Of a stretch of 20,000 bases of DNA, positions 2,029 through 18,431 are shown in pieces; the first letter of the stretch is position 1, and each line of letters begins with the position of its first letter. A model generated the notes under the pieces. That model was not told where the DNA came from. It saw only the letters and a list, made by a program, of their open reading frames with translations, and did not search any database. The translations under genes were made by a program, and so were the position numbers. The stretch lies in assembly GCA_000934665.2 (NCBI GenBank), contig KZ538698.1, positions 45,748-65,747 on the forward strand, given 5' to 3'. The stretch comes from Catajapyx aquilonaris (Eukaryota).

Positions 2029-3268
2029 AACAGAGTTTATTGGGCGATATAGCCTATAAAATACCCTCCACCCATTCCTACAGGGATAACAAAAACACCA
2101 TAAAAATTAAAATGTTTGGTTCTCTGCCTCAGTCCCAGCACTCGTCCAACCCCACAGCGCCAGGCCCTGAACCACCAGCCCTGTCTTCTTTTTCATTGTC
2201 TGGTATCGTCACCAGTTCGTCTCCCCAAGCGCTAGTGCACCTCGTCCTGAGCCATCACTGCCAGCCCAAACAGCTCCATCATGTCTCGAGTCGTCGCTCT
2301 CTCCCGGCTAGGAGACATCGGGCTCCACATCCTGTCGTTGCCCCCAGTTGCGGCCGGCATTCAGCTCAGTTAGAAGATGGTTAGCCACCAGGGAAAAGTT
2401 GTTAAAGATAGGCAGCATCGTGGCGGTGACCAGAGCCTCCCTAGAGCAGGGACATCCAAGCCTCTTTGACACAGCCGTACATCGTAACATCCTGCGTGCT
2501 TCGGCTATTTCAGGTAGGGAGCAGTCTCATATGATGTGCACAGCTGATTGATTGCCCCTCTTGCATTGACACCTCATCCCTGACGGATCATCCTCTTCTT
2601 CCTGTCCCCCATCTGCTCTTCTTCCCAGATGGAATCGGCCGAGGTAGGTTTTATATGGTCCATGACCCTATATCAACCTTGCCAGATGGCCATGGATATG
2701 TCTCCGGGTCGATACAGTAGGGAAGAACGCAAAGTACCACGAGTCCCTCTGCCGCTCCCACTCACTCTGCCAGGTATCCACCGCCATACACATCGCACGT
2801 CGTCGCACTCCCACGGGGAATCCGGGAGGAATCGACGTCCCACCATGACCATGAGTGTCATCACCTTCTTGGCCTTCTCGTCAGCAAGCTCATTCCCCAA
2901 CCTTAGTTCCCTGATGCCCCTTCACCCAGCATAGGCCAATCTCTCGTCCAGCACTCTTCAGGACCCTCTGTGCGTGCAGGGCTGGTGCCAAGGTGGAACG
3001 GGGATTCACCACCATCTGTAGAGCCGACAGGAAGTCCGAGACCACCCAGACAGGTCGTCTCGAACCAGAGGCCGCGGCCATCTCCACCGCTTGGACGATC
3101 ATTTCCAACTCAATGTCGAAGATCCCCATTTGAGTAGCAAAGGGGAAGGTGTCGCAAGCGACAACCCGCAATCCAGCATCCATGGTCACCACTGCTCCTC
3201 CAGTGCCCCGCTTCATGACCAAACTGTCCGTGAAATAGAGGTGGTCCACTCCGATTGGCGTCCCATCC
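2029..3268 (-). mobile_element. 5'-truncated, decayed R1-like non-LTR retrotransposon (RNase H + C-terminal zinc finger)
   Basis: RNase H motifs YFTDS, IFDIELE, VVSDFLSAL, LCWVKGHQG..GNELADEKAK; then GHGPYKTYLGRF and CQC-x7-H-x4-C, with frameshifts and stops. 15-bp TSD TAACTTCTTGACACT at 2014-2028 and 3278-3292; AATAAA near the 3' end. Confidence 0.9.
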
Positions 3269-4560
3269 CTTGACACTTAACTTCTTGACACTGTGCCACT
3301 CTTTCTGCTCATTCATTCATGCTACTTGCTTTAGCCCTTGCTTTAACAATTTTGTGTTCGGTAAAAGCAATAGCATAAATAAATGTCTTCCCTGAAAACT
3401 ACGATTTTGGCAGTTACCTCCTTATTGCCCTGTGCCCTATATATTCAAATAGGACCTGTGCATAAACATATGGTGAGTTGGACCATGATGTGCTAATCAA
3501 TTTCTTTTGTGCACACTAATTGTTTTAAGAGGGCAGTCACTCAAACATGGGATTAAGGAGTTGGATTTGTGTCCCTTTGAATAGAGTCCAATTGTTGAGT
3601 TCAGAATGGCTTGTGTTGGATCTTGTCTGTAATCATTGTACACTCACCTTTGAATAATTTTTTTTTAAAGCTCTTCTCACATATTACAACCATTTCCATG
3701 GAAATATGACCTTAACCCTCCAGCTTAATATCTCTCCTCTTCATTATCACCTGCATTTAGTACCATTCTTCCATGTGTTTGGAAAGGTGTCCAAAAGGCT
3801 GGGGAGAAAATGTGACATATTTTATTCCTTACAAAAATACAGTCTGTTTGTCGACCAACAATAAATAATACCTCGATCGAGTCTAGAGAAGGCACAAGTT
3901 CGTTCAACAAAATAAGTACCCGAAGAATAATTTTTTGTTTAAATCTATGAAAATGAAATGGTCATTTTCTTTGAACTGGAAACTGACTAGCTTTAGTACA
4001 AAATGAGATTTAATGTACTGTACAATATGTTCTTTGACAATATTATCTAGGTCCTAGGATGTGCAGTGAAATAGGGAACCTTATTCACAAGTTTCACGCT
4101 AATATCACTAGAAATAATGCGGACTAAAATTTACTGTTCCACAGATATCACAACAAAAAATTATTTTGGTCAAAGACAAAAGCAATCATTGGACAGCTCT
4201 TTATTAACACTTCTTTAGCATGTGTTACATAAGTGCACCAAAAAATTAACTGTCTTATTATAGTAATATATTCCTCTCTTGAGACAATTACCATTCAATA
4301 CGGTATTGGACACAAGGTTAACTAAAACATGCCAAGAAAATCAGATAAATATGAAAACCAGAATGGCAACTGCCTAACAACTTGCAAATACACAAACTAA
4401 CAAAATTCAAAGAAGGTCTGTTCTGGATTCACTGAACATCCAAGTGGTGGCCTTCTCATGGGGGCATCTGCTTTGAAGAATACGCTACACAACAAAGAGG
4501 AATAATGGGTTATTTATATGAATTACCATTGAATCACTTCATTAGAAATGGTCTACAGTT

Positions 4561-5616: not shown

Positions 5617-5724
5617 TTTTTCAACAGTTTTGAGGTTTTCATATCAGCAGAAACTGTTTAATATTCATTGGGAAAACATTACACAGTTTCTGCTGATATG
5701 AAAAACCTCAAAACTGTTGAAAAA

Positions 5725-6084
5725 CAGTTGAATGTGTACATAACAACCTCTGCTGTAACAGACTTATACTGTACGTGTCTTATTGAGTTTGTACCCTCAT
5801 CTTTCCTCTACATACCCATGTGCATATCACAACGATTACTTTATCTGTTACAAAAATATTTACATTTAAATATGTCACAAAGTCACCCGGCTATGAGGGG
5901 TGATTTTGTGAGGCAACTAGGCAAAAATGGTCTGTTATTGCCGAGGTGAGGTAAAAATGAGTCTGTTATTATGTCAGGAGAAAAAATACACATGGCCTTA
6001 TGGAATTATGCCGGGACAGGCCTTTCGAGTCTGTTACAACCGAAAGTCTGTTATAACTGAGGCTTTTATATCTGGAGTCAACTG
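5725..6084. mobile_element. Non-autonomous pogo/Tigger-like element, copy B (same family as copy A)
   Basis: CAGTTGAAT left end; GGAGTCAACTG|TA right end; shares its right subterminal sequence with copy A. Confidence 0.65.
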
Positions 6085-6608
6085 TATTATGAGAAACATT
6101 CGGTCAATTTTTCGCCCCCTTTTCGTTCAAGACCTTAACTTTGTGAAGTCCTCAGAGGCCAATTTTCTTGGGCTAATTTTTTATTGTTATAATTTCAAGT
6201 TGTACAGTACCCAAAGGGACCGGATCACAGGTGAAAACTTTAAATTATATTCGTGGACTGACTTTGTGACAAGATGATGCTGTCACAAAGTCACCCCGCA
6301 AAACTATGAAATTATCCCAATACCCCCCCTTCATATCTTCCACAAAACAGGTTCAATCTTGCATCATCTTTGATCATTTCTTAGCCAATGTATCTATCTT
6401 TTAAAAAAATTACATGTTTTACTCTCTTCGCACCTGTGCCAGTTGTTATTATAAGGAAATTAGTCGAAGGTAGAGACAACAATCCTCACAGTGTACAGAC
6501 TTGGAATGTGACTACCAACAATGCATGAGGTACAGGAGCTTTCGCAGCTGGCCTCTAGGTGATACTACATACCTGCTTTCCTGCTCCTCTGCCTCCCTTA
6601 TCAACCGA

Positions 6609-6806
6609 TTAAATACATCTCTCATAGTGGGCCCTCTGGCAGTCTGCACTTCTTGGGAGAAGCTGGCGCTGCCCACGCTTGAAGCTGTCATGTCTATATT
6701 CATGGACCACGTGGTTCTCATGAGTGACACAAATGAAACCGTGAGTCTGGAGAACTCGAAGGAAATCACTGGCGCTGCTGATCCCGTACATGCTTAGGTA
6801 CTGCTC
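6609..6806 (-). CDS. Exon encoding the C-terminal half of a divergent HSF-type DNA-binding domain
   Basis: Acceptor TTTTTCATACAG| at 6807. Reads EQYLSMYGISSASDFLRVLQTHGFICVTHENHVVHEYRHDSFKRGQRQLLPRSADCQRAHYERCI*, matching the HSF motifs FVRQLNMYGFRKV and EFQHPCFLRGQEQLL. Confidence 0.72.
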   Translation of the reverse strand, partial: EQYLSMYGISSASDFLRVLQTHGFICVTHENHVVHEYRHDSFKRGQRQLLPRSADCQRAHYERCI

Positions 6807-6865
6807 CTGTATGAAAAATTACAAATGACACCTGTCATATACACCAGTAGGTTACTTGTATACAC

Positions 6866-6886
6866 CTGATCCATCCTGAAGAGATG
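6866..6886 (-). CDS. Candidate micro-exon of the HSF-like gene (HLFRMDQ)
   Basis: CATTGCAG|CATCTCTTCAGGATGGATCAG|GTGTAT, with a 59-nt intron to the 6806 exon in phase 0. FRMDQEQY aligns with HSF1 FHVFDQGQF. An alternative 10-nt version using CTCTTCAG| is possible. Confidence 0.45.
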
Positions 6887-6936
6887 CTGCAATGAGTTAC
6901 AGTATCAATTCCTCTCTCAATTAAATAAGGAATTGC

Positions 6937-7288
6937 GGGGAGGTGTAGATGGCCGAGATGGTAACGTCTCGGCTTGCTGAGTGAAAGGCCCCAGGTTCGA
7001 TCCCCGCCTGGGGAACTTTCCTTTCACCTGCGTCAGGAGGGTCTCTGACCTGCACCAAGGAGGTGTCTGGCAACCTAACCTCCTGGGGAACAGCACATGA
7101 CCCCTTTACAGACCTTGCACTTGCACCTATATGTTCCCTCCCCAAAAATCCCTACCCCTACCCTACATCCTTGAATCCTTGCACCGGAGACTGAAGTTAA
7201 TATCTAGAAAAATGGAATTAAATGGTGGTATTCCACCCCCCTAAAAAGGCTCTGCATTATCACGGGGTATAATAATAATAATAATAAC

Positions 7289-7354
<66 letters not shown>
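6937..7354 (+). mobile_element. tRNA-derived SINE with (AAT)n tail
   Basis: A box TGGCCGAGATGG (~6950), B box GGTTCGATCCC (~6992), (AAT)n tail 7268-7354, 13-bp TSD AATAAGGAATTGC at 6924-6936 and 7355-7367. Confidence 0.9.
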
Positions 7355-7359
<5 letters not shown>

Positions 7360-7375
7360 GGAATTGCCCATCTTA

Positions 7376-7556
7376 AGGGTGGTATCCACTGCTCAATATC
7401 AAGGGGTTTCAACCTGTTCAACATTTTGAATCAACTCCTTGAGCGGGCTTGAACCGAGTAGAGCACGGCCCTACTCAGTTCAAGCCTGCTTAAGGGGTTG
7501 ATTCAAGGAGTTGAACGGGTTGAAACCCCTTAATATTGAGCAATGGATACCACCCT
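7376..7556. mobile_element. PIF/Harbinger-type palindromic MITE
   Basis: TTA|AGGGTGGTATCCA ... TGGATACCACCCT|TTA. The whole 181 bp folds as an imperfect hairpin; 3-bp TTA TSD. Confidence 0.85.
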
Positions 7557-8259
7557 TTAGATTAGACATGCAACTCACAATTTTGACATAACTTATGCAA
7601 AATTATTGTTTAATTGACTTATGACATATTCATAAGTGAAATACTACTGCACCCAAAACTTAATATACCGCATAAACACAAGTATTTTACCATTAATTTT
7701 ACTGTACTGGGACAACATATTGTATATTTACCAAATATTGACCCATATATTACAGTACTGGCTTTATGATTTACACTGCAACATCTGATAATAATGGGCA
7801 GCTGCAAGTTGTTACTTGTTTAGCACAGGAGAAGCAAGCCAATGATTTATAGAATTCTTCTAGAAGCTAAACATATTAGAACCTAGCTACTAAAATAATG
7901 GAAAATGACTATTATCATACTAACTCAAGATCTCTGAGGCGAATTTTGAGTAAAATCTGTGAAATGCACTGAGTTACTGAAAGTTATGTGAATTGCAAAG
8001 AGGGTCTTGGAAGAGTGTGGAGACCACCACAATGTTAAAAATGTCTACTATCCTGTTGCACCACTGCTGGTAGACTGTTAATGAAGACTTTATTATTTTG
8101 GGTTGGCAACAAGAACCTCGCCATATTGCAATGACTTCAATCCACTGTCTAAAAAGTGGGCCTTTGAAATGGAATGCTATTCCCAGTTTAAAAAATAATG
8201 CAGGAAAATGCAACCCATTTCCTTCACAGACAAAACGTTTTCATTTGGTATGGAGATTT

Positions 8260-8510
8260 CGTCGTTAATCTGACAAAAGGACGAATTCAACATTTCCTAA
8301 TTTTACAGGAGAGCCAAAAGAAACCTGCAAACTGCTATACAAATATTGGACATAAGATGGCCTTTTAATTTTCCGCTATAACTCTGACGCACTTGTCCCA
8401 CGTGTTCCCCGTTTTGTCAGAATGTGACTCAACACTTGATGGTGCTGGCAGAGGCCATGACTAGATTTTAGAAAAAATGTCGAATTCGTCCTTTTGTCAG
8501 ATTTACGACG
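8260..8510. mobile_element. MITE with ~40-bp TIRs, superfamily unassigned
   Basis: CGTCGTTAATCTGACAAAAGGACGAATTC ... GAATTCGTCCTTTTGTCAGATTTACGACG; no clear TSD. Confidence 0.75.
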
Positions 8511-9499
8511 ACCTGCTTGATTCCTTTGTTTCCACGGAAAAGATGTGTTGCAGAATCAGTTTCGACTCATTTCTGAATAATTATTTGATATATTGAAACT
8601 CAATTTTTGCCTCCTTTGATCACCAAATGGAAAATCTGGATTTGAAAATTCACTTAGCTTCGAACTTTAAATGGTCGCAGATGATTATTTGCAAATATTT
8701 ATTTGCTTTTAATCCGGAAATGACAAAAAATGCTCAATTTTTGGAGTTGTGTATTGTTTACTGAAAGTAATAGTTCTTAAAATAATTTGTACTCCAGAAA
8801 TTATATAATTTTAGCATACATATTGCAACTCCAAATATTGCCAATTTTCTATCAATTTATTTTAGTTTTTTAATACTCTATACTCCTTTTAGCCCTTTGT
8901 GTCCGCCTTATATTACACCAATTGTCTGCAGATGCAGTGAACCTTTGCATTAACAATGTTGTGCCAACTATATGGGAATATGAGAACCCTAGTGATGAAA
9001 TCTGTTACTTATTCTAAATGTTGAAGAAAGAACAGTTTTTGAGAAGTTTACAACTACACAACATATGGGGTAGAATGTTAATGCTGTACAGTACAGGTAT
9101 ATTTAAAAATAAGATTCATGGGCTCAGAGCATACAGATCTGATAACAGATGACGTGGCAGCTCATGTTGAATTTCCCATCACCCAACACCTGTTAATAAG
9201 TAGTCACGACTTTGTGCCTGTTGGCTCCAATTAACTTTCCTCGCATATGTTTTTAATGCCACCATTGCATTGTGGTCATCCTTTATGGGATTATTTCAGA
9301 AATGAGGAAAATATACCAGTGACTATGCTTATGACTGTGTGCCTTTAACAATATATTGTATGAATAATTTTAAACCTAGACAACAATAATTGTCTTAATT
9401 GCTACCTTGTAGCAAGAATAACTAAAAATAATTTCAGAGCTGCTCATCATTATTAAATGAGTCGAGTCCAGTGATAGAGCCTACTTGGAATAGTCTCAC

Positions 9500-9554
9500 C
9501 CTGAATTATGCTTCCAGAATAGATTGTACATGAACACTTTTGTGGATGAAATGC
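9500..9554 (-). CDS. Candidate upstream exon of the HSF-like gene (ISSTKVFMYNLFWKHNSG)
   Basis: TATTAAG| acceptor and GG|GTGAGA donor. VFMYNLF resembles HSF helix 1 (AFLTKLW). Speculative. Confidence 0.25.
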
Positions 9555-9561
9555 CTTAATA

Positions 9562-9873
9562 TAATAATAATACAATATAATAATTTGTACCCCGTGCTAG
9601 GGCCATGGGCCCTCTTAGGGAGGTGGGATCCCACCTTATTTTTTTTATCTGGAACTCTTGCTTTCGTTTTTACTTCTCGTATATGGGGATGGGATAGGGA
9701 CGGAAGGAAGCGGCTGTGGCCTATAATTACGGGCCCGACCCCAGAATTTTCCTGGTGAGACCATGGGAAACCACAGAAAACCACGGTCAGGGTCGGCGGC
9801 CACCGGGATTCAAACCCAGTACCTCCCGATTAGCAGTCGGATACCAAATCCCCCCCGCTACCACTGCTTCGGT
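9562..9873 (-). mobile_element. tRNA-derived SINE
   Basis: Minus strand: B-box-like GGGTTTGAATCCC, GTTTTCTGTGGTTTCCC core, (TAT)n tail; 16-bp TSD ATGAAATGCCTTAATA at 9546-9561 and 9874-9889. Confidence 0.88.
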
Positions 9874-10157
9874 ATGAAATGCCTTAATAAAAACCAGCGA
9901 GGGGGTTTGCCAAATGATGACAAGAGGGGGAGAGAGGGCGATTGGCTTTAAAAATTTCAAAAATGTGATGTCGTATTACGTGAATCAACGCATATTAGTC
10001 TATTATTGGGAACAACCTAACAAGAGATTTCTGTGACATGAACCCAAACCGATCCTCCAACATATTGAATATATTGATAAATTCAGTCGAAAACCATGTC
10101 ATTCAAAAATGTTCATCCTGTGGGGAGCTGTTCTGCCCAAGTGTCAGCCTATGTATA

Positions 10158-10269
10158 CAGTCCTTGAATCCGGATATATAACAGCCTTGGCTATAACAGA
10201 CCTCAGTTATAAGTTATAACAGACTGATTTCCTCGATCCCTTGAAGTATGTTTTATAGAAGTTTTACTG
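10158..10269. mobile_element. Short chimeric pogo/Tigger-like remnant
   Basis: Left end TA|CAGTCCTTGAATCCGGATATATAAC resembles the 4872 family; right end TTATAGAAGTTTTACTG|TA is identical to the TIR of the adjacent 10274 element. Confidence 0.55.
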
Positions 10270-10273
10270 TATA

Positions 10274-10837
10274 CAGTAAAACTTCTATAAATCGAATCTC
10301 CATGGGACCGGGAAAAAACTTCGAGTTATAGAAGATTCCAGTTAGAGAAGTTTGGATTTTTAAAGCACAGAACTCTGTAAGAGAGCCTATCTTTATATGC
10401 AGCGATGAAAGGTGTTCAAAACTTAAAAATAACTGTCACTATCACACTTACAATGTTCCTCATTGTTTTGTTGAGAAAAAATCTGTTATGGACATTTGCC
10501 TACTCTTAGATTCAAGGATTCAATTGTCACAATCGAGTCAAACACTTCTTTCGGTACGTCTGGTAGACGGAGATCAGGAAATTGAGCCTTTCTGTACATG
10601 TGGCCTACTGTCGACCCTTCGGCTGGGAAATGAGAAAATTTTCCTTACTCGCCAACATGAACTTCGACTTAGGGAGACTGAAAATGCATTGATATCCCAT
10701 CGTAAGGCCCTGCCTGCACTTCGAGTTATGGAGAACTTCCAGTTAGGGAAGTTTATTTCCTATTATTTTACATTGTGACCAACCAAGCTCATCATTTTCT
10801 TCGACTTAGGGAAGTTCGACTTATAGAAGTTTTACTG
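10274..10837. mobile_element. Non-autonomous pogo/Tigger-like element
   Basis: TA|CAGTAAAACTTCTATAA ... TTATAGAAGTTTTACTG|TA (17-bp perfect TIR, TA TSD); internal TTCGA(G/C)TTA repeats. Confidence 0.88.
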
Positions 10838-10838
10838 T

Positions 10839-11000
10839 ATGTTTGAGGAGCTGAATGTGCTCAACACTTCTCTGCAAGAGGTCAAATCAAGCAACATTGT
10901 TTCATAGCATGAAAACAAGTGAAATTTTTCTTCAACTCGAACTCTGGCTGGCAGGAAAAAGTTGAGAAATCTACATTTGAAATGTTTCATCGGCTACAGG
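10839..11000 (+). pseudogene. Decayed hAT (Buster/Charlie-like) transposase fragment
   Basis: MFEELNVLNTSLQ ... LELW / QEKVEKSTFEMFHRL with stops and frameshifts, resembling the Buster-type IFxxLNxLNxSLQG...KLxLW...FxMFPxL region. Confidence 0.7.
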
Positions 11001-11216
11001 AGTGTGTCGAGGACAGTGGCTCAAAATTCAAGAGCGAGTCACCTCCACACACTTGCAAAAAAGGAGGGTTTCGGGGAGGGGGTCACGCATTTATGGAAAC
11101 ATGCCCAAAACTTCTTGAGTTAGGTTAAAATGAACTCTGTCAGGTAAAAAATTCCAGCACAAACACAACACTGTAGTGTGAAGTATATTTGACTTTATCC
11201 CCAAAAAGGCCAGCAT

Positions 11217-11521
11217 TCAATACACTTCCAGATCATGCGAGAAGAATATGGCTGCATTGTCCCCACCACAAATGAGGCTGGACCGGAAAACATCCAGAGT
11301 GTTGATGGCCAGGTGGGAGTCGGGCAGCGCTGCCTTGGTTGCTACCCGTCCTTGCGCCAGACTACCACTGAGCCACAGCGATTCCATGGGTGCCTTCAGT
11401 GCCTGCGAGTATGTGCCGCCGGCTCTGGACTTGAGTGCATCATTCCACTGCCAAGTCTCTCCTCCAAATGAGCAAGTGAACAGATGGTTCGGATTCAAGG
11501 GATGGAACTTCAGCTCACGGA
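11217..11521 (-). CDS. Nup43: Nucleoporin Nup43, exon 6 (last)
   Basis: TTTTCCCCAG| acceptor; VRELKFHPLNPNHLFTCSFGGETWQW...LWLSG...AINTLDV...LICGGDNAAIF...Y*; TGA at 11217-11219. Confidence 0.95.
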
Positions 11522-11574
11522 CTGGGGAAAAAGCAGCTCAATTATCCGACAATTGCGGAAGAACATGCCAGTAC

Positions 11575-11716
11575 CTTCTGATGTATGTCCCTTAAGCAGG
11601 GTGACAGGATACTTTTCCCTCCGGATGTCCCATATTCCGAGTGTCCCTTCCTCCGTCCCTGTCGCAACAATGTGGGGCTGGGTTGGATGCTGATCAATGC
11701 AGGTTATGCCCACCAT
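11575..11716 (-). CDS. Nup43: Nucleoporin Nup43, exon 5
   Basis: CIDQHPTQPHIVATGTEEGTLGIWDIRREKYPVTLLKGH; AG/GT boundaries, phase 0/1. Confidence 0.96.
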
Positions 11717-11768
11717 CTGCAAGGATAATTACTGAATTCACATTTGTGCAGGCTCATTATAGATGTAC

Positions 11769-11917
11769 CTTGTCTTCGGAGAAGGTAAATATGGCAGCGG
11801 GTTTATCACATGAGGTAAGCAGATCGTATACTTTCAGCTGACCTCGCAGGTTGGCCACCATCAACTCATTGTGCTTTAAGTAGCAGACACTTGTTAGCCA
11901 ACCGCTCTCGCCTTTAT
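11769..11917 (-). CDS. Nup43: Nucleoporin Nup43, exon 4
   Basis: DKGESGWLTSVCYLKHNELMVANLRGQLKVYDLLTSCDKPAAIFTFSEDK; TTTGCAG| acceptor and |GTACAT donor, phase 1/0. Confidence 0.93.
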
Positions 11918-11974
11918 CTGCAAACATTTAATTATACAGTCTAGCTTCAGTAATTAATGAACTGTGTTCGTTAC

Positions 11975-12093
11975 CGATGGACCGCATTGGCTCTTGTCTT
12001 GCCGGGTTGAGCATAACTATCCTGCCGTCTTCGCCAACAGTTGCGATTTCCTCCTTAAAATTAGTAACTGCAGTGCATGGCAGCTCTTTGTAC
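11975..12093 (-). CDS. Nup43: Nucleoporin Nup43, exon 3
   Basis: YKELPCTAVTNFKEEIATVGEDGRIVMLNPARQEPMRSI, including the Nup43 TVGEDGRI motif; CTGTAG| acceptor and |GTAACG donor. Confidence 0.94.
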
Positions 12094-12175
12094 CTACAGA
12101 CAATATGGCACCAGTTAATTCGTATTTTACAATAAATCTTACAGCATGAGTTTGTTTCTGAAAATCAATTGGTAC

Positions 12176-12423
12176 TTTTTGTGAATCCCCGTCCATCCCC
12201 GCAGCAGCTTGAACTTCCAAGCTGCATTGAGGGGGGGTCCAGCCAAATAGATTTCGTACAGCCGTACGCTCCCGTCAGAGCTAGCGGTCAGAAAGCGATC
12301 CGAGTCCATGAACTTGATGTCCATGAAATCGGCCTGTTGAGCCGCCATGTCTACACCGACCGGCATGAATCCTTTTCCAGTCAAATCCTCCTGCTGGAAC
12401 TTCCACAACTTCATCTCATTAAC
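12176..12423 (-). CDS. Nup43: Nucleoporin Nup43, exon 2
   Basis: VNEMKLWK...DFMDIKFMDSDRFLTASSDGSVRLY...WTGIHK; TTTGCAG| acceptor and |GTACCA donor (phase 2). Confidence 0.92.
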
Positions 12424-12473
12424 CTGCAAAAACGTGCATTAGAATTTTGCACTCACATGCTTGTAACACTTAA

Positions 12474-16548: not shown

Positions 16549-18431
16549 ACATACATAACATCACGACATTAATCCCATGATGGGGTAGCCAGGATGACCA
16601 AGTACATTCGCAAGCATAAAGATGTGGATGGTAGAGCAGAGATCTTCCTCGCCCCATGGGCTCTTTGCATGACGTCAGCCCTTCACCCACAGCCCCAGGG
16701 TAGGCCTACTAGTCTAGGACATGCTAAGAATACTTTAATAGCGACAATGGTTACCCAGCCCATGAGGGCTGCACCATCTTCATCATCCACAGTCCCCTAT
16801 TTATTAACAAACAATAATTACAATCCAACATAGCAAATGGCAAACCCAAACCCCCACAGGCGTTTACCAGACGACTCAAATGTCTGTCCACGATAAGGCA
16901 GAAAGTATTCAAGTCCTCCCACAGTTTAGCCGTCCGAACGCCCTTGGAACATGGCCACCCCAGTCCCCTGGACACAGCAGCACACAGAAGAGAACTATGG
17001 GCCCATAGAACCTCAGGAAGGAGACGTGCTCCGCATCCTGTTGTCCAGTTCCACAGGGACAGGCAGTGTCCCCCTTCAGTCCAAATCGATGCAAATAAGC
17101 CAGGAAAGGGCCATAACCAGACACTATGTGTGCTAAGTGTCCAGGAACATGTCTATCTTCGGTCACCAACGAGAAGAACCGGTGGTACCAGCTGCCACGA
17201 GCCCTGCTTCAGCCATTTTGCCAGGACTTCTCTGCTCTTCCCAAGGATTGATGTCTCAGCACAGCCTTTGTCACTGGCAAAAATCTCCACCCCACCGTCA
17301 GGGAAGCTGTCTGCTTCGCTTCTTGGTCCGCTAGCTCGTTCCCAGGAGTTCCATTATGTGCCTTAACCCAGCACAGCTGCACCTCAGCCACTATACCATG
17401 AAGAGTCTGCATGGCCGCTCCACTGCCAGCGATAGTGACCTGGGATCAGCGATGGTTTGTAGAGCCGACATTGAGTTGGACACTACCCAGGCCACCTGTC
17501 CATGTCACCAGGAAGGCTCATGTCCACCAGAACCTCTAGCGCCCTTCCCACCATTTTCATCAGCTCCACCTCATTGATCCTCACTGTGTTGACGAATGGC
17601 ATCAGCTCGATGAACTGCCTGTTCCCCTCCCCTGCCATGCACAGCAATGCGCCACCCGCACTGCAGCCTCTGGTCACTGAATCGTCCGTGAAGGCGATAA
17701 GATCTAGGCCTACACCTCGCAGAACATATGTCCATGTTAGTATGTCCAGGCGACGCCACAGCCAAGGGGGAATCAGATGTCGTAACGTGTTGTTTTTGGC
17801 ACCATCAGTCCAGAAATCACCTGAGGGATTCTAGCACAGCGTTGCTCCACCAGTTTGTCAACTCTAGGCACCAGCAGGGGTACCAACTGAAAAGTTGTAC
17901 CAAATTTTGACGCTGATTGACTTGACATGTCAAGGGCATGAAATCGAAATTCCCTTCCTTTAGTAGGTTGACATATTATTCTCCATAATTGACCTCCCAT
18001 TGTTTGACCTGTGATCTGCAGACAGAGTTCCTAGCTTGAATTGATTCCATGCCTTCTCAGCCCGCCCATGACAGATTTTCCCTACACCTGCCAGACGTGA
18101 CCTTCTGACCCTTGCGGAGAGGCTGTGCACATTTCACGAGGGTTCAAGAAATAGTTGGTGACCCACGTCAGGTCAGGTCCAACCCCACCCGTTTTGCCAT
18201 ATCATATAGCATGTAAAGAGTTCCTAGCTTGAATTGATTCCATGCCTTCTCAGCCCGCCCATGACAGATTTTCCCTACACCTGCCAGACGTGACCTTCTG
18301 ACCCTTGCGGAGAGGCTGTGCAAATGTCACGAGGGTTCAAGAAATAGTTGGTGACCCACGTCAGGTCAGGTCCAACCACCCGTTTTGCCATATCATATAG
18401 CATGTAAAGAGTTCCTTGCTTGAATTGATTC
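16549..18431 (-). mobile_element. 5'-truncated, decayed R1-like non-LTR retrotransposon (RNase H + zinc finger)
   Basis: AFTDDS, NEVEL, VVSNSMSAL, LCWVKAHNGTPGNELADQEAK; SGYGPFLAYLHRFGLKGDTACPCGTGQQDAEHV; (TATG)-like tail at ~16549-16560; frameshifted. Ends are approximate and no TSD was found. Confidence 0.88.
18024..18431. repeat. Near-identical tandem repeat, unit 193/191 bp, 2 copies plus 24 bp
   Basis: AGAGTTCCT(A/T)GCTTGAATTGATTC begins at 18024, 18217 and 18408. Confidence 0.95.

Follow-up and report, generated by a model that had tools for sequence, protein, structure and literature searches.

A strongly diverged exon of the short heat shock factor family in the genome of Catajapyx aquilonaris, probably the remnant of a recently dead gene copy

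INTRODUCTION

Does a short exon on the minus strand of a 20,000-nucleotide stretch of the Catajapyx aquilonaris genome, hereafter called the window, belong to a heat shock factor (HSF) reduced to its DNA-binding domain (DBD), and would the product of such a gene recognize a new DNA site? The canonical HSF continues into the HR-A/B region after the DBD. The original prediction proposed for this locus a small DBD-only paralog with an altered recognition helix that could have acquired a new specificity or act as a competitor. Small HSFs without a trimerisation domain are a known kind, since a truncated insect 'HSF2' and vertebrate HSF5 have both been described. The former is a second HSF whose DBD is intact and whose HR-A/B is at most partial; it is reported from all Hymenoptera, many holometabolans, Locusta and Pediculus (Glastad 2023, PMC10270196). 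The DBD of its representative in Harpegnathos saltator, hsalHSF2, is intact, and the protein binds to chromatin and turns on chaperone genes (PMC10270196). As portrayed in that source, hsalHSF2 and the hymenopteran short HSFs resemble the present locus in being small HSFs found beside a canonical one, composed of a DBD and a short tail and devoid of full oligomerisation, regulatory or activation domains. Vertebrate HSF5, according to its preprint description, is without HR-A/B, has a poorly conserved wing and an isolated DBD that is monomeric and binds a single GAA (bioRxiv 10.1101/2023.09.19.557986), and it provides a precedent for trimer-free HSFs (Yoshimura et al.). Unlike the window copy, HSF5 as presented there keeps the Ser-Phe-Ile-Arg-Gln motif and is a long, expressed and essential protein. 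Sex-linked HSF copies are described as possible pseudogenes (PMC12366260).

IDENTITY OF THE EXON

The exon is preceded by an AG acceptor at 6808-6807, and the phase-0 frame that starts at 6806 carries both sequence motifs on which the original prediction was founded (Table 1). This frame runs in order through the end of helix 2, the recognition helix, strand 3, a short wing, strand 4, a C-terminal turn and 15 more codons and, as predicted, it is closed by a TAA (6611-6609) 15 codons past the final LL of the domain. The peptide matches the HSF profile PF00447 with 22.9 bits when its 65 residues are used (E 1.3e-4) and with 23.6 bits as a 69-residue version (E 7.5e-5), the cut-off being 22. Profile positions 39/43-95 of 100 are covered, which correspond to helix 2, the recognition helix and the wing; positions 1-38, comprising helix 1 and strands 1-2, are absent from the exon and the domain is therefore incomplete. 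A family profile retrieved the exon with an E of 3e-6 among 1942 segments, and the peptide agrees, in order, with 11 of the 23 columns that are conserved in 10 or more of the 11 relatives. The exon DNA itself is single-copy in the genome.

In a PDB sequence search all five entries with E<=10 were HSF DBDs, none of them significant. An AlphaFold2 model computed from a 12-row HSF alignment displays helices at residues 2-6 and 12-21 and strands at 24-29 and 32-37, with a mean pLDDT of 61 and a pTM of 0.40. The top 14 Foldseek rows for this model are HSF DBDs, the best having an E of 0.74 and a TM of 0.45 and none reaching E<=0.001; this likeness is not independent of the sequence since the model was built from an HSF alignment. 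VIA-align against 48,161 chains returned one row (Z 2.1), which is not an HSF. The HSF identity stands for the C-terminal half of the domain only: the proposed HSF-type DBD with an altered recognition helix is borne out by the profiles, but what the exon encodes is half a DBD, and the searches described below detected no exon encoding the N-terminal half.

Table 1. Features of the window around the HSF-like exon
Feature	Positions	Strand	Basis or remark
HSF exon ORF, 65 codons and TAA	6609..6806	-	phase-0 start at 6806
3' splice site, T-rich tract and CAG, phase 0	6807..6830	-	sequence; exon starts of the paralogs
Exon-like sequence past the stop, ending at consensus donor CAG/GTATGT (6573/6572)	6573..6608	-	sequence
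Probable one-base frameshift at codons 51-52, right after the last conserved LL	6650..6657	-	modest support
Candidate 21-nt micro-exon	6866..6886	-	splice signals only; in-frame ATG at 6874
Possible decayed exon-1 remnant (helix-1-like motif)	8916..9008	-	7.2 bits; may be chance
Dispersed repeat copy of ~900 bp with nested elements	5618..6572	+	40/40 scored genome matches
SINE-like repeat with (AAT)n tail, antisense to the exon	6937..7354	+	85% match to another copy
Hairpin element, MITE-like, arms of 95 nt, 87% complementary	7370..7562	.	
WD40 gene with very short introns (52, 52, 58, 85 nt)	11220..12440	-	WD40 hits

THE SHORT HSF FAMILY

A PF00447 search of the whole genome (286 Mb, 20,583 contigs) yielded seven matches from eight candidates. 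These comprise a canonical arthropod-type HSF in two exons (C568), short HSFs on C3568, C1584 and C158, and the window exon, so that this arthropod genome holds at least five HSF loci. A match on C3781 was rejected as fortuitous, lying on the antisense strand of an EcKL kinase gene; on this contig (L016, L069), at least eight EcKL (ecdysteroid-kinase-like) genes, each of one exon, follow one another in tandem within 20 kb. Weak hits on C2203 and C526 contain stops, and those on C3569 and C4475 are hairpin-repeat copies whose DNA scores at shuffle level.

In each of the three short HSFs, exon 1 consists of 46 codons encoding helix 1 and strands 1-2 and is followed by a phase-0 intron. Their exon 2 begins without exception at the E-Y-[LM] motif of helix 2, at the very position where the window exon starts; this family trait, a phase-0 intron before the helix-2 E-Y-L, was derived here from the three paralogs and not from the literature. 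The helix-3/strand-3 motif is interrupted by an intron in the canonical gene and uninterrupted in the window exon and the three short HSFs. The window exon shares with HSF1 and the canonical arthropod HSF a predicted winged helix-turn-helix, the invariant guanine-reading Arg and the F-x-R-G-x-x-x-L-L end of the domain, and differs from them in its intron positions and at the positions aligned with the Asn74, Lys62 and Arg117/Lys118 contacts, which the canonical proteins keep.

Among 15 database candidates, eight relatives of the C3568 protein were retained (162-240 aa), five of which bear hymenopteran names such as 'HSF Y-linked-like', 'X-linked member 4' or 'HSF2-like'. The highest pairwise scores of the window exon (74-78) are to four hymenopteran short HSFs (P0001-P0004) out of a set of eight (P0001-P0008) annotated 'HSF X-linked/Y-linked-like' or 'HSF2-like'; four more gave 59-65, the three paralogs of the genome 61, 62 and 41 and the canonical HSF 41. 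In a tree of 13 rows and 71 columns, the window exon is unplaced, without a supported branch and with a very long end branch (10). On the strength of the shared phase-0 exon start and of the pairwise scores, we favour its assignment as exon 2 of the arthropod short-HSF family. The short HSFs of this genome and their hymenopteran relatives most likely correspond to the truncated insect 'HSF2' class of Glastad 2023, and P0001-P0008 would be orthologues of hsalHSF2, judging by names, size and taxa. Searches for orthologues of the window copy itself were unproductive: eight candidates among longer proteins included none at E<=10, near-length proteins provided no candidate, 1.84 billion representatives gave no hit at E<=0.001 and an Atlas search gave no usable hit. 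Of 496 metagenomic candidates one passed, and its resemblance is fortuitous, lying in a frame of a bacterial-type gene that is not the coding one.

The window copy departs from its relatives in several respects. The S-F-[IV]-R-Q-L-N motif is kept by all 11 of them and changed at S, Q, N and Y in the window copy, whose wing is also 8-12 residues shorter, whose exon 1 is not recognisable and whose tail is broken or short. The three other short HSFs of the genome are intact-looking and better preserved. They represent an expansion of the insect 'HSF2'-type family, which is possibly present outside insects; we found neither described in the literature searched, and the taxon distribution in Fig. 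S4 of Glastad 2023 may bear on the reach of the family.

The paralogs present some peculiarities of their own. C3568 and C158 are recent duplicates (dN 0.107 and dS 0.337 over 118 codons), and exon 1 of both (L002:2702-2697, minus strand; L012:5913-5918, plus strand) ends at a GC donor, CAG/GCAAGT, where C1584 has GT. Their tails (L004:1780-2004 for C158; L002:1450-1351 for C3568) contain a module of ~33 residues with I-K-x-E motifs, presumably SUMO-site-like, that is tandemly doubled in C158.

THE SEARCH FOR EXON 1

An exon-1 profile built from 11 relatives detected no intact exon 1 in 1942 six-frame segments covering the window and 10 kb downstream; the best segment (9008-8916) reached 7.2 bits with an E of 0.52. 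This segment has no in-frame ATG, encounters a stop 10 codons past its motif, lacks a donor and is not coding-like. The same level was attained by three segments in 298,510 bases of unrelated DNA; since only 0.022 such hits are expected per 4.4 kb of one strand, the segment may be a decayed remnant of exon 1. Forty candidates extending from an ATG to a phase-0 donor were collected between 6830 and 11210; the best of them adds only 2.9 bits to the whole-domain profile and none is both coding-like and HSF-like. Exon 1 of the paralogs, used as a control, adds 62-69 bits, a figure that overstates the gain to be expected because these controls are included in the profile. Genome searches recovered three exon-1 copies only, all on the paralog contigs, and a coding-potential scan of 6940-11200 revealed no convincing unique coding block outside repeats, the available space being bounded by the 3' end of the WD40 gene. 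Exon 1 is therefore likely absent, with the reservation that it can have been missed, since a simulated exon 1 as diverged as exon 2 scores below the 7.2-bit noise in roughly 10-30% of runs.

The original prediction also included a micro-exon upstream of the acceptor. The expected splice signals are in place (YAG and CAG/GTG), they delimit a 59-nt intron that fits the local sizes illustrated by the Nup43-like neighbour (Table 1), and signals of this grade occur at 99 of 3696 random positions (2.7%). The candidate has no detectable homology, however: the family-profile score is 19.6 bits with it and 19.8 without it, and its peptide does not rise above background against any of the 11 relatives. 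Two other segments were discarded. An exon 1 made of segment 6936-6856, which ends at an alternative donor at 6856, brings the profile score down to 18.7. The minus-strand ORF 8240-7977 (88 codons), considered as exon 1 or as a second copy, has an eight-residue wing motif in common with hymenopteran short HSFs (tblastn E 0.003-0.08; pairwise E 3e-5); it has no Pfam hit, about 2 bits on the family profile and a coding score of -20.8, and was treated as a probable chance resemblance. Just upstream of the exon, a 19-codon stretch on the minus strand (6936-6880) resembles the C-terminal module of C3568 (8/19 identical) and not that of C158; a score this high is reached by about 1 background peptide in 4363. 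It is not coding-like and starts at the target duplication of the SINE, and may be either a chance resemblance or what is left of the tail of a tandem copy now lost.

THE END OF THE EXON

Beyond the stop, exon-like sequence continues for 36 nt up to a consensus donor. From the acceptor to this donor (6806-6573) the distance is 234 nt or 78 codons, and in six loci the density of equally strong donors is 0.036 per kb. The flanking repeat is cut off exactly at the donor and lacks its last ~78 bp, as established from the junction in 10 copies and from ends at six loci; GTATGT, the donor hexamer, stands at the same junction in 4 of 10 other repeat copies and thus belongs to the repeat as well. The junction would best be explained by a deletion in which this short match joined the repeat to a real donor. 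The idea that the repeat captured the exon was dismissed, the missing repeat end being found nowhere else in the window.

The reading frame between the domain and the donor can be understood in two ways. A one-base shift at codons 51-52 is the best of 34 tested positions (26.2 versus 24.5 bits). Reading through the break raises the PF00447 score to 24.4-24.9 bits (+1.5 to +2.0), extends the match to position 98 and leaves the frame open to the donor, which becomes phase 2. In the shifted frame, the conserved V behind LL reappears, together with a GP-x-M motif that C3568 also carries (P 0.007-0.011); the tail in this frame is significant against only one of the 11 relatives, with a summed P of 0.05-0.10. 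Codon usage over 13 codons gives +4.2 bits to the shifted frame versus -3.8 to the native one. In a second codon model the likelihood ratio for a shift is ~3.5 and the switch point at codons 51-52 is tied with one at codons 34-35; 1/13 training sets of this model, and 1/12 of a further one, were out of frame (47-48 codons), and the correctly framed model that gave +4.2 and -3.8 bits agrees in direction. The native tail also resembles one of the 11 relatives (P 0.014), and the native frame keeps the donor in phase 0, as in three paralog exons (366, 261 and 525 nt). A one-base frameshift right after the domain is thus modestly favoured: an inserted base would be the somewhat more plausible lesion, a nonsense codon in the native frame is less plausible and a genuine stop rather unlikely.

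The stop is more likely damage inside a longer exon than a designed end and cannot, for this reason, carry the argument for a DBD-only protein. The exon belongs to a lineage without a full trimerisation domain, its relatives being short hymenopteran HSFs, and the DBD-only character is a known trait of that family. In the native frame, no HR-A/B coiled coil follows the DBD, and a hymenopteran C-terminal profile retrieved no downstream exon at E<0.1 in eight sources.

PREDICTED DNA BINDING

The recognition-helix changes that had been announced (S>D, Q>V, N>Q and Y>H, with retention of the Arg) are confirmed by alignment, which adds a K>C change; the S-F-[VI]-R-Q-L-N helix is no longer found in the exon. 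The retained residue, R17, is the invariant Arg of the recognition helix in both alignments. Together with this guanine-reading Arg, the hydrophobic core residues are kept. The losses comprise the K and T/R of the turn, the S, Q, N and Y of helix 3 and the basic pair after GF; the nearly invariant terminal V-x-R is absent in the native frame and its Arg in both frames. In HSFs, the helix-3 residues S, Q and Y make contacts to phosphates. In the HSF1 and HSF2 structures as described, Arg71 of HSF1 makes the base-specific contact, Asn74 and Arg117 are auxiliary, Lys118 (and Lys110/Ser112 of HSF2) lie against the backbone and Lys62 connects one domain to the next (PMC8379338). HSF1 residue numbers were mapped to the exon by alignment.

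Since the Arg is kept while an Asp is placed on the helix and basic residues are lost, the encoded protein is predicted to have a low affinity for the same GAA and no new site. With the base-reading Arg unchanged and the neighbouring polar and basic residues lost, a loss of affinity fits better than the proposed new specificity. The competitor role would need a transcript and a complete domain.

CODING HISTORY AND FATE OF THE LOCUS

Neutral decay was simulated down to the observed ~50% identity at the conserved columns. A stretch of 50 codons escapes stops in 23-28% of these runs and, if 0.1 indel per substitution is assumed, escapes frameshifts in 3-5%, both together in about 1%. The GC3 of the exon is 0.62 versus a flank GC of 0.33-0.36, and the HSF frame is the one that scores best in a codon-usage model. 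From these three observations, the exon would have diverged while still coding. The domain part contains no lesion and keeps its codon bias; if the gene is dead, its death must therefore be recent.

We consider it probable that the window exon is a strongly diverged and recently dead copy of a short HSF, a young pseudogene rather than a new regulator. This is the simplest reading of a copy that lacks helix 1 and whose tail looks broken. In such a scenario, an old duplicate of an arthropod short-HSF gene, with a DBD in two exons and no full HR-A/B, would have remained protein-coding for a long time while drifting far, keeping its core and its Arg and losing several DNA-side residues. In its last functional state, the product probably was a winged-helix protein that bound DNA weakly or not at all. 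Breakage would then have come from the loss or decay of exon 1 and from the lesion just after the domain that severed the tail from the donor at 6573, repeats would have filled both flanks, and today the locus most likely makes no functional protein. The data directly establish the HSF identity, the shared intron position, the lack of an intact exon 1 among the tested candidates and the presence of a donor past the stop, whereas the order of these events, the loss of binding and the death of the gene are inferred.

Resemblance to HSFs by chance is very improbable. A score just above the Pfam cut-off, the lack of a library-wide significant hit and the failure of VIA-align to return an HSF chain would speak for it, but the family profile, the matched conserved columns and the coding-type frame bias run against it, and it is largely refuted because the profile match and the acceptor at the exact family intron position agree independently. 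More serious, if still rather unlikely, is a live and fast-evolving short HSF paralog whose exon 1 would be too diverged or split and whose stop would be genuine or an assembly error; its product might be a monomeric winged-helix protein with little affinity for DNA that contacts other proteins or binds GAA weakly, and by analogy with the family it would probably be expressed in the germ line or the embryo. The domain part is indeed stop-free, frame-conserving and codon-biased, its acceptor is good and placed as in the family, the lesion lies beyond the folded core and the profile would miss an equally diverged exon 1 in a minority of the simulations. Against this stand the 40 ATG-to-donor candidates, none of them both coding-like and HSF-like, the coding-potential scan of 6940-11200, in which no unique block outside repeats looks convincingly coding, and the loss of the nearly invariant V-x-R domain end in the native frame.

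A live half-domain microprotein of 68 residues, translated from the ATG at 6874 to the stop at 6609 and serving as a decoy or partner of other HSFs, seems improbable to us. The scarcity of micro-exon-grade signals at random positions, the fitting intron and the in-frame ATG are in its favour. It is opposed by the lack of homology of the micro-exon, by the poor model obtained for the exon alone (pTM as given above) and by the SINE lying 50 nt upstream, where a promoter would be; moreover, it would lack helix 1 and strands 1-2, which belong to the HSF DBD core. Also unlikely in our estimation is a still-expressed 'pseudo-DBD' HSF, an old paralog that would keep the fold and the Arg, shed the phosphate-side contacts, possibly comprise the 68 residues from the micro-exon ATG and damp, at the protein level, the canonical and the short HSFs.

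As a young pseudogene, the window copy is of little weight alone; it shows the short-HSF family duplicating and dying in this lineage. The family count is more useful, with three intact-looking short HSFs and a degenerate fourth, versus the single short HSF per insect given in the account of Glastad 2023. If the copy were expressed, it would constitute a natural experiment on the residues needed for HSF DNA binding and a candidate dominant-negative HSF microprotein.

GENOMIC SURROUNDINGS

The SINE-like repeat upstream of the exon is flanked by a 13-bp target-site duplication (6924-6936 / 7355-7367). Besides the elements of Table 1, the interval contains another hairpin element (8256-8511) and old repeats (9020-9870), and is bounded by the WD40 gene, the upstream neighbour of the exon, which we take to be Nup43-like. 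Farther away, decayed pieces resembling non-LTR retrotransposons lie on the minus strand of the window at 2355-3300 and 16900-17830, the latter with an RNase H hit at 17445-17212.
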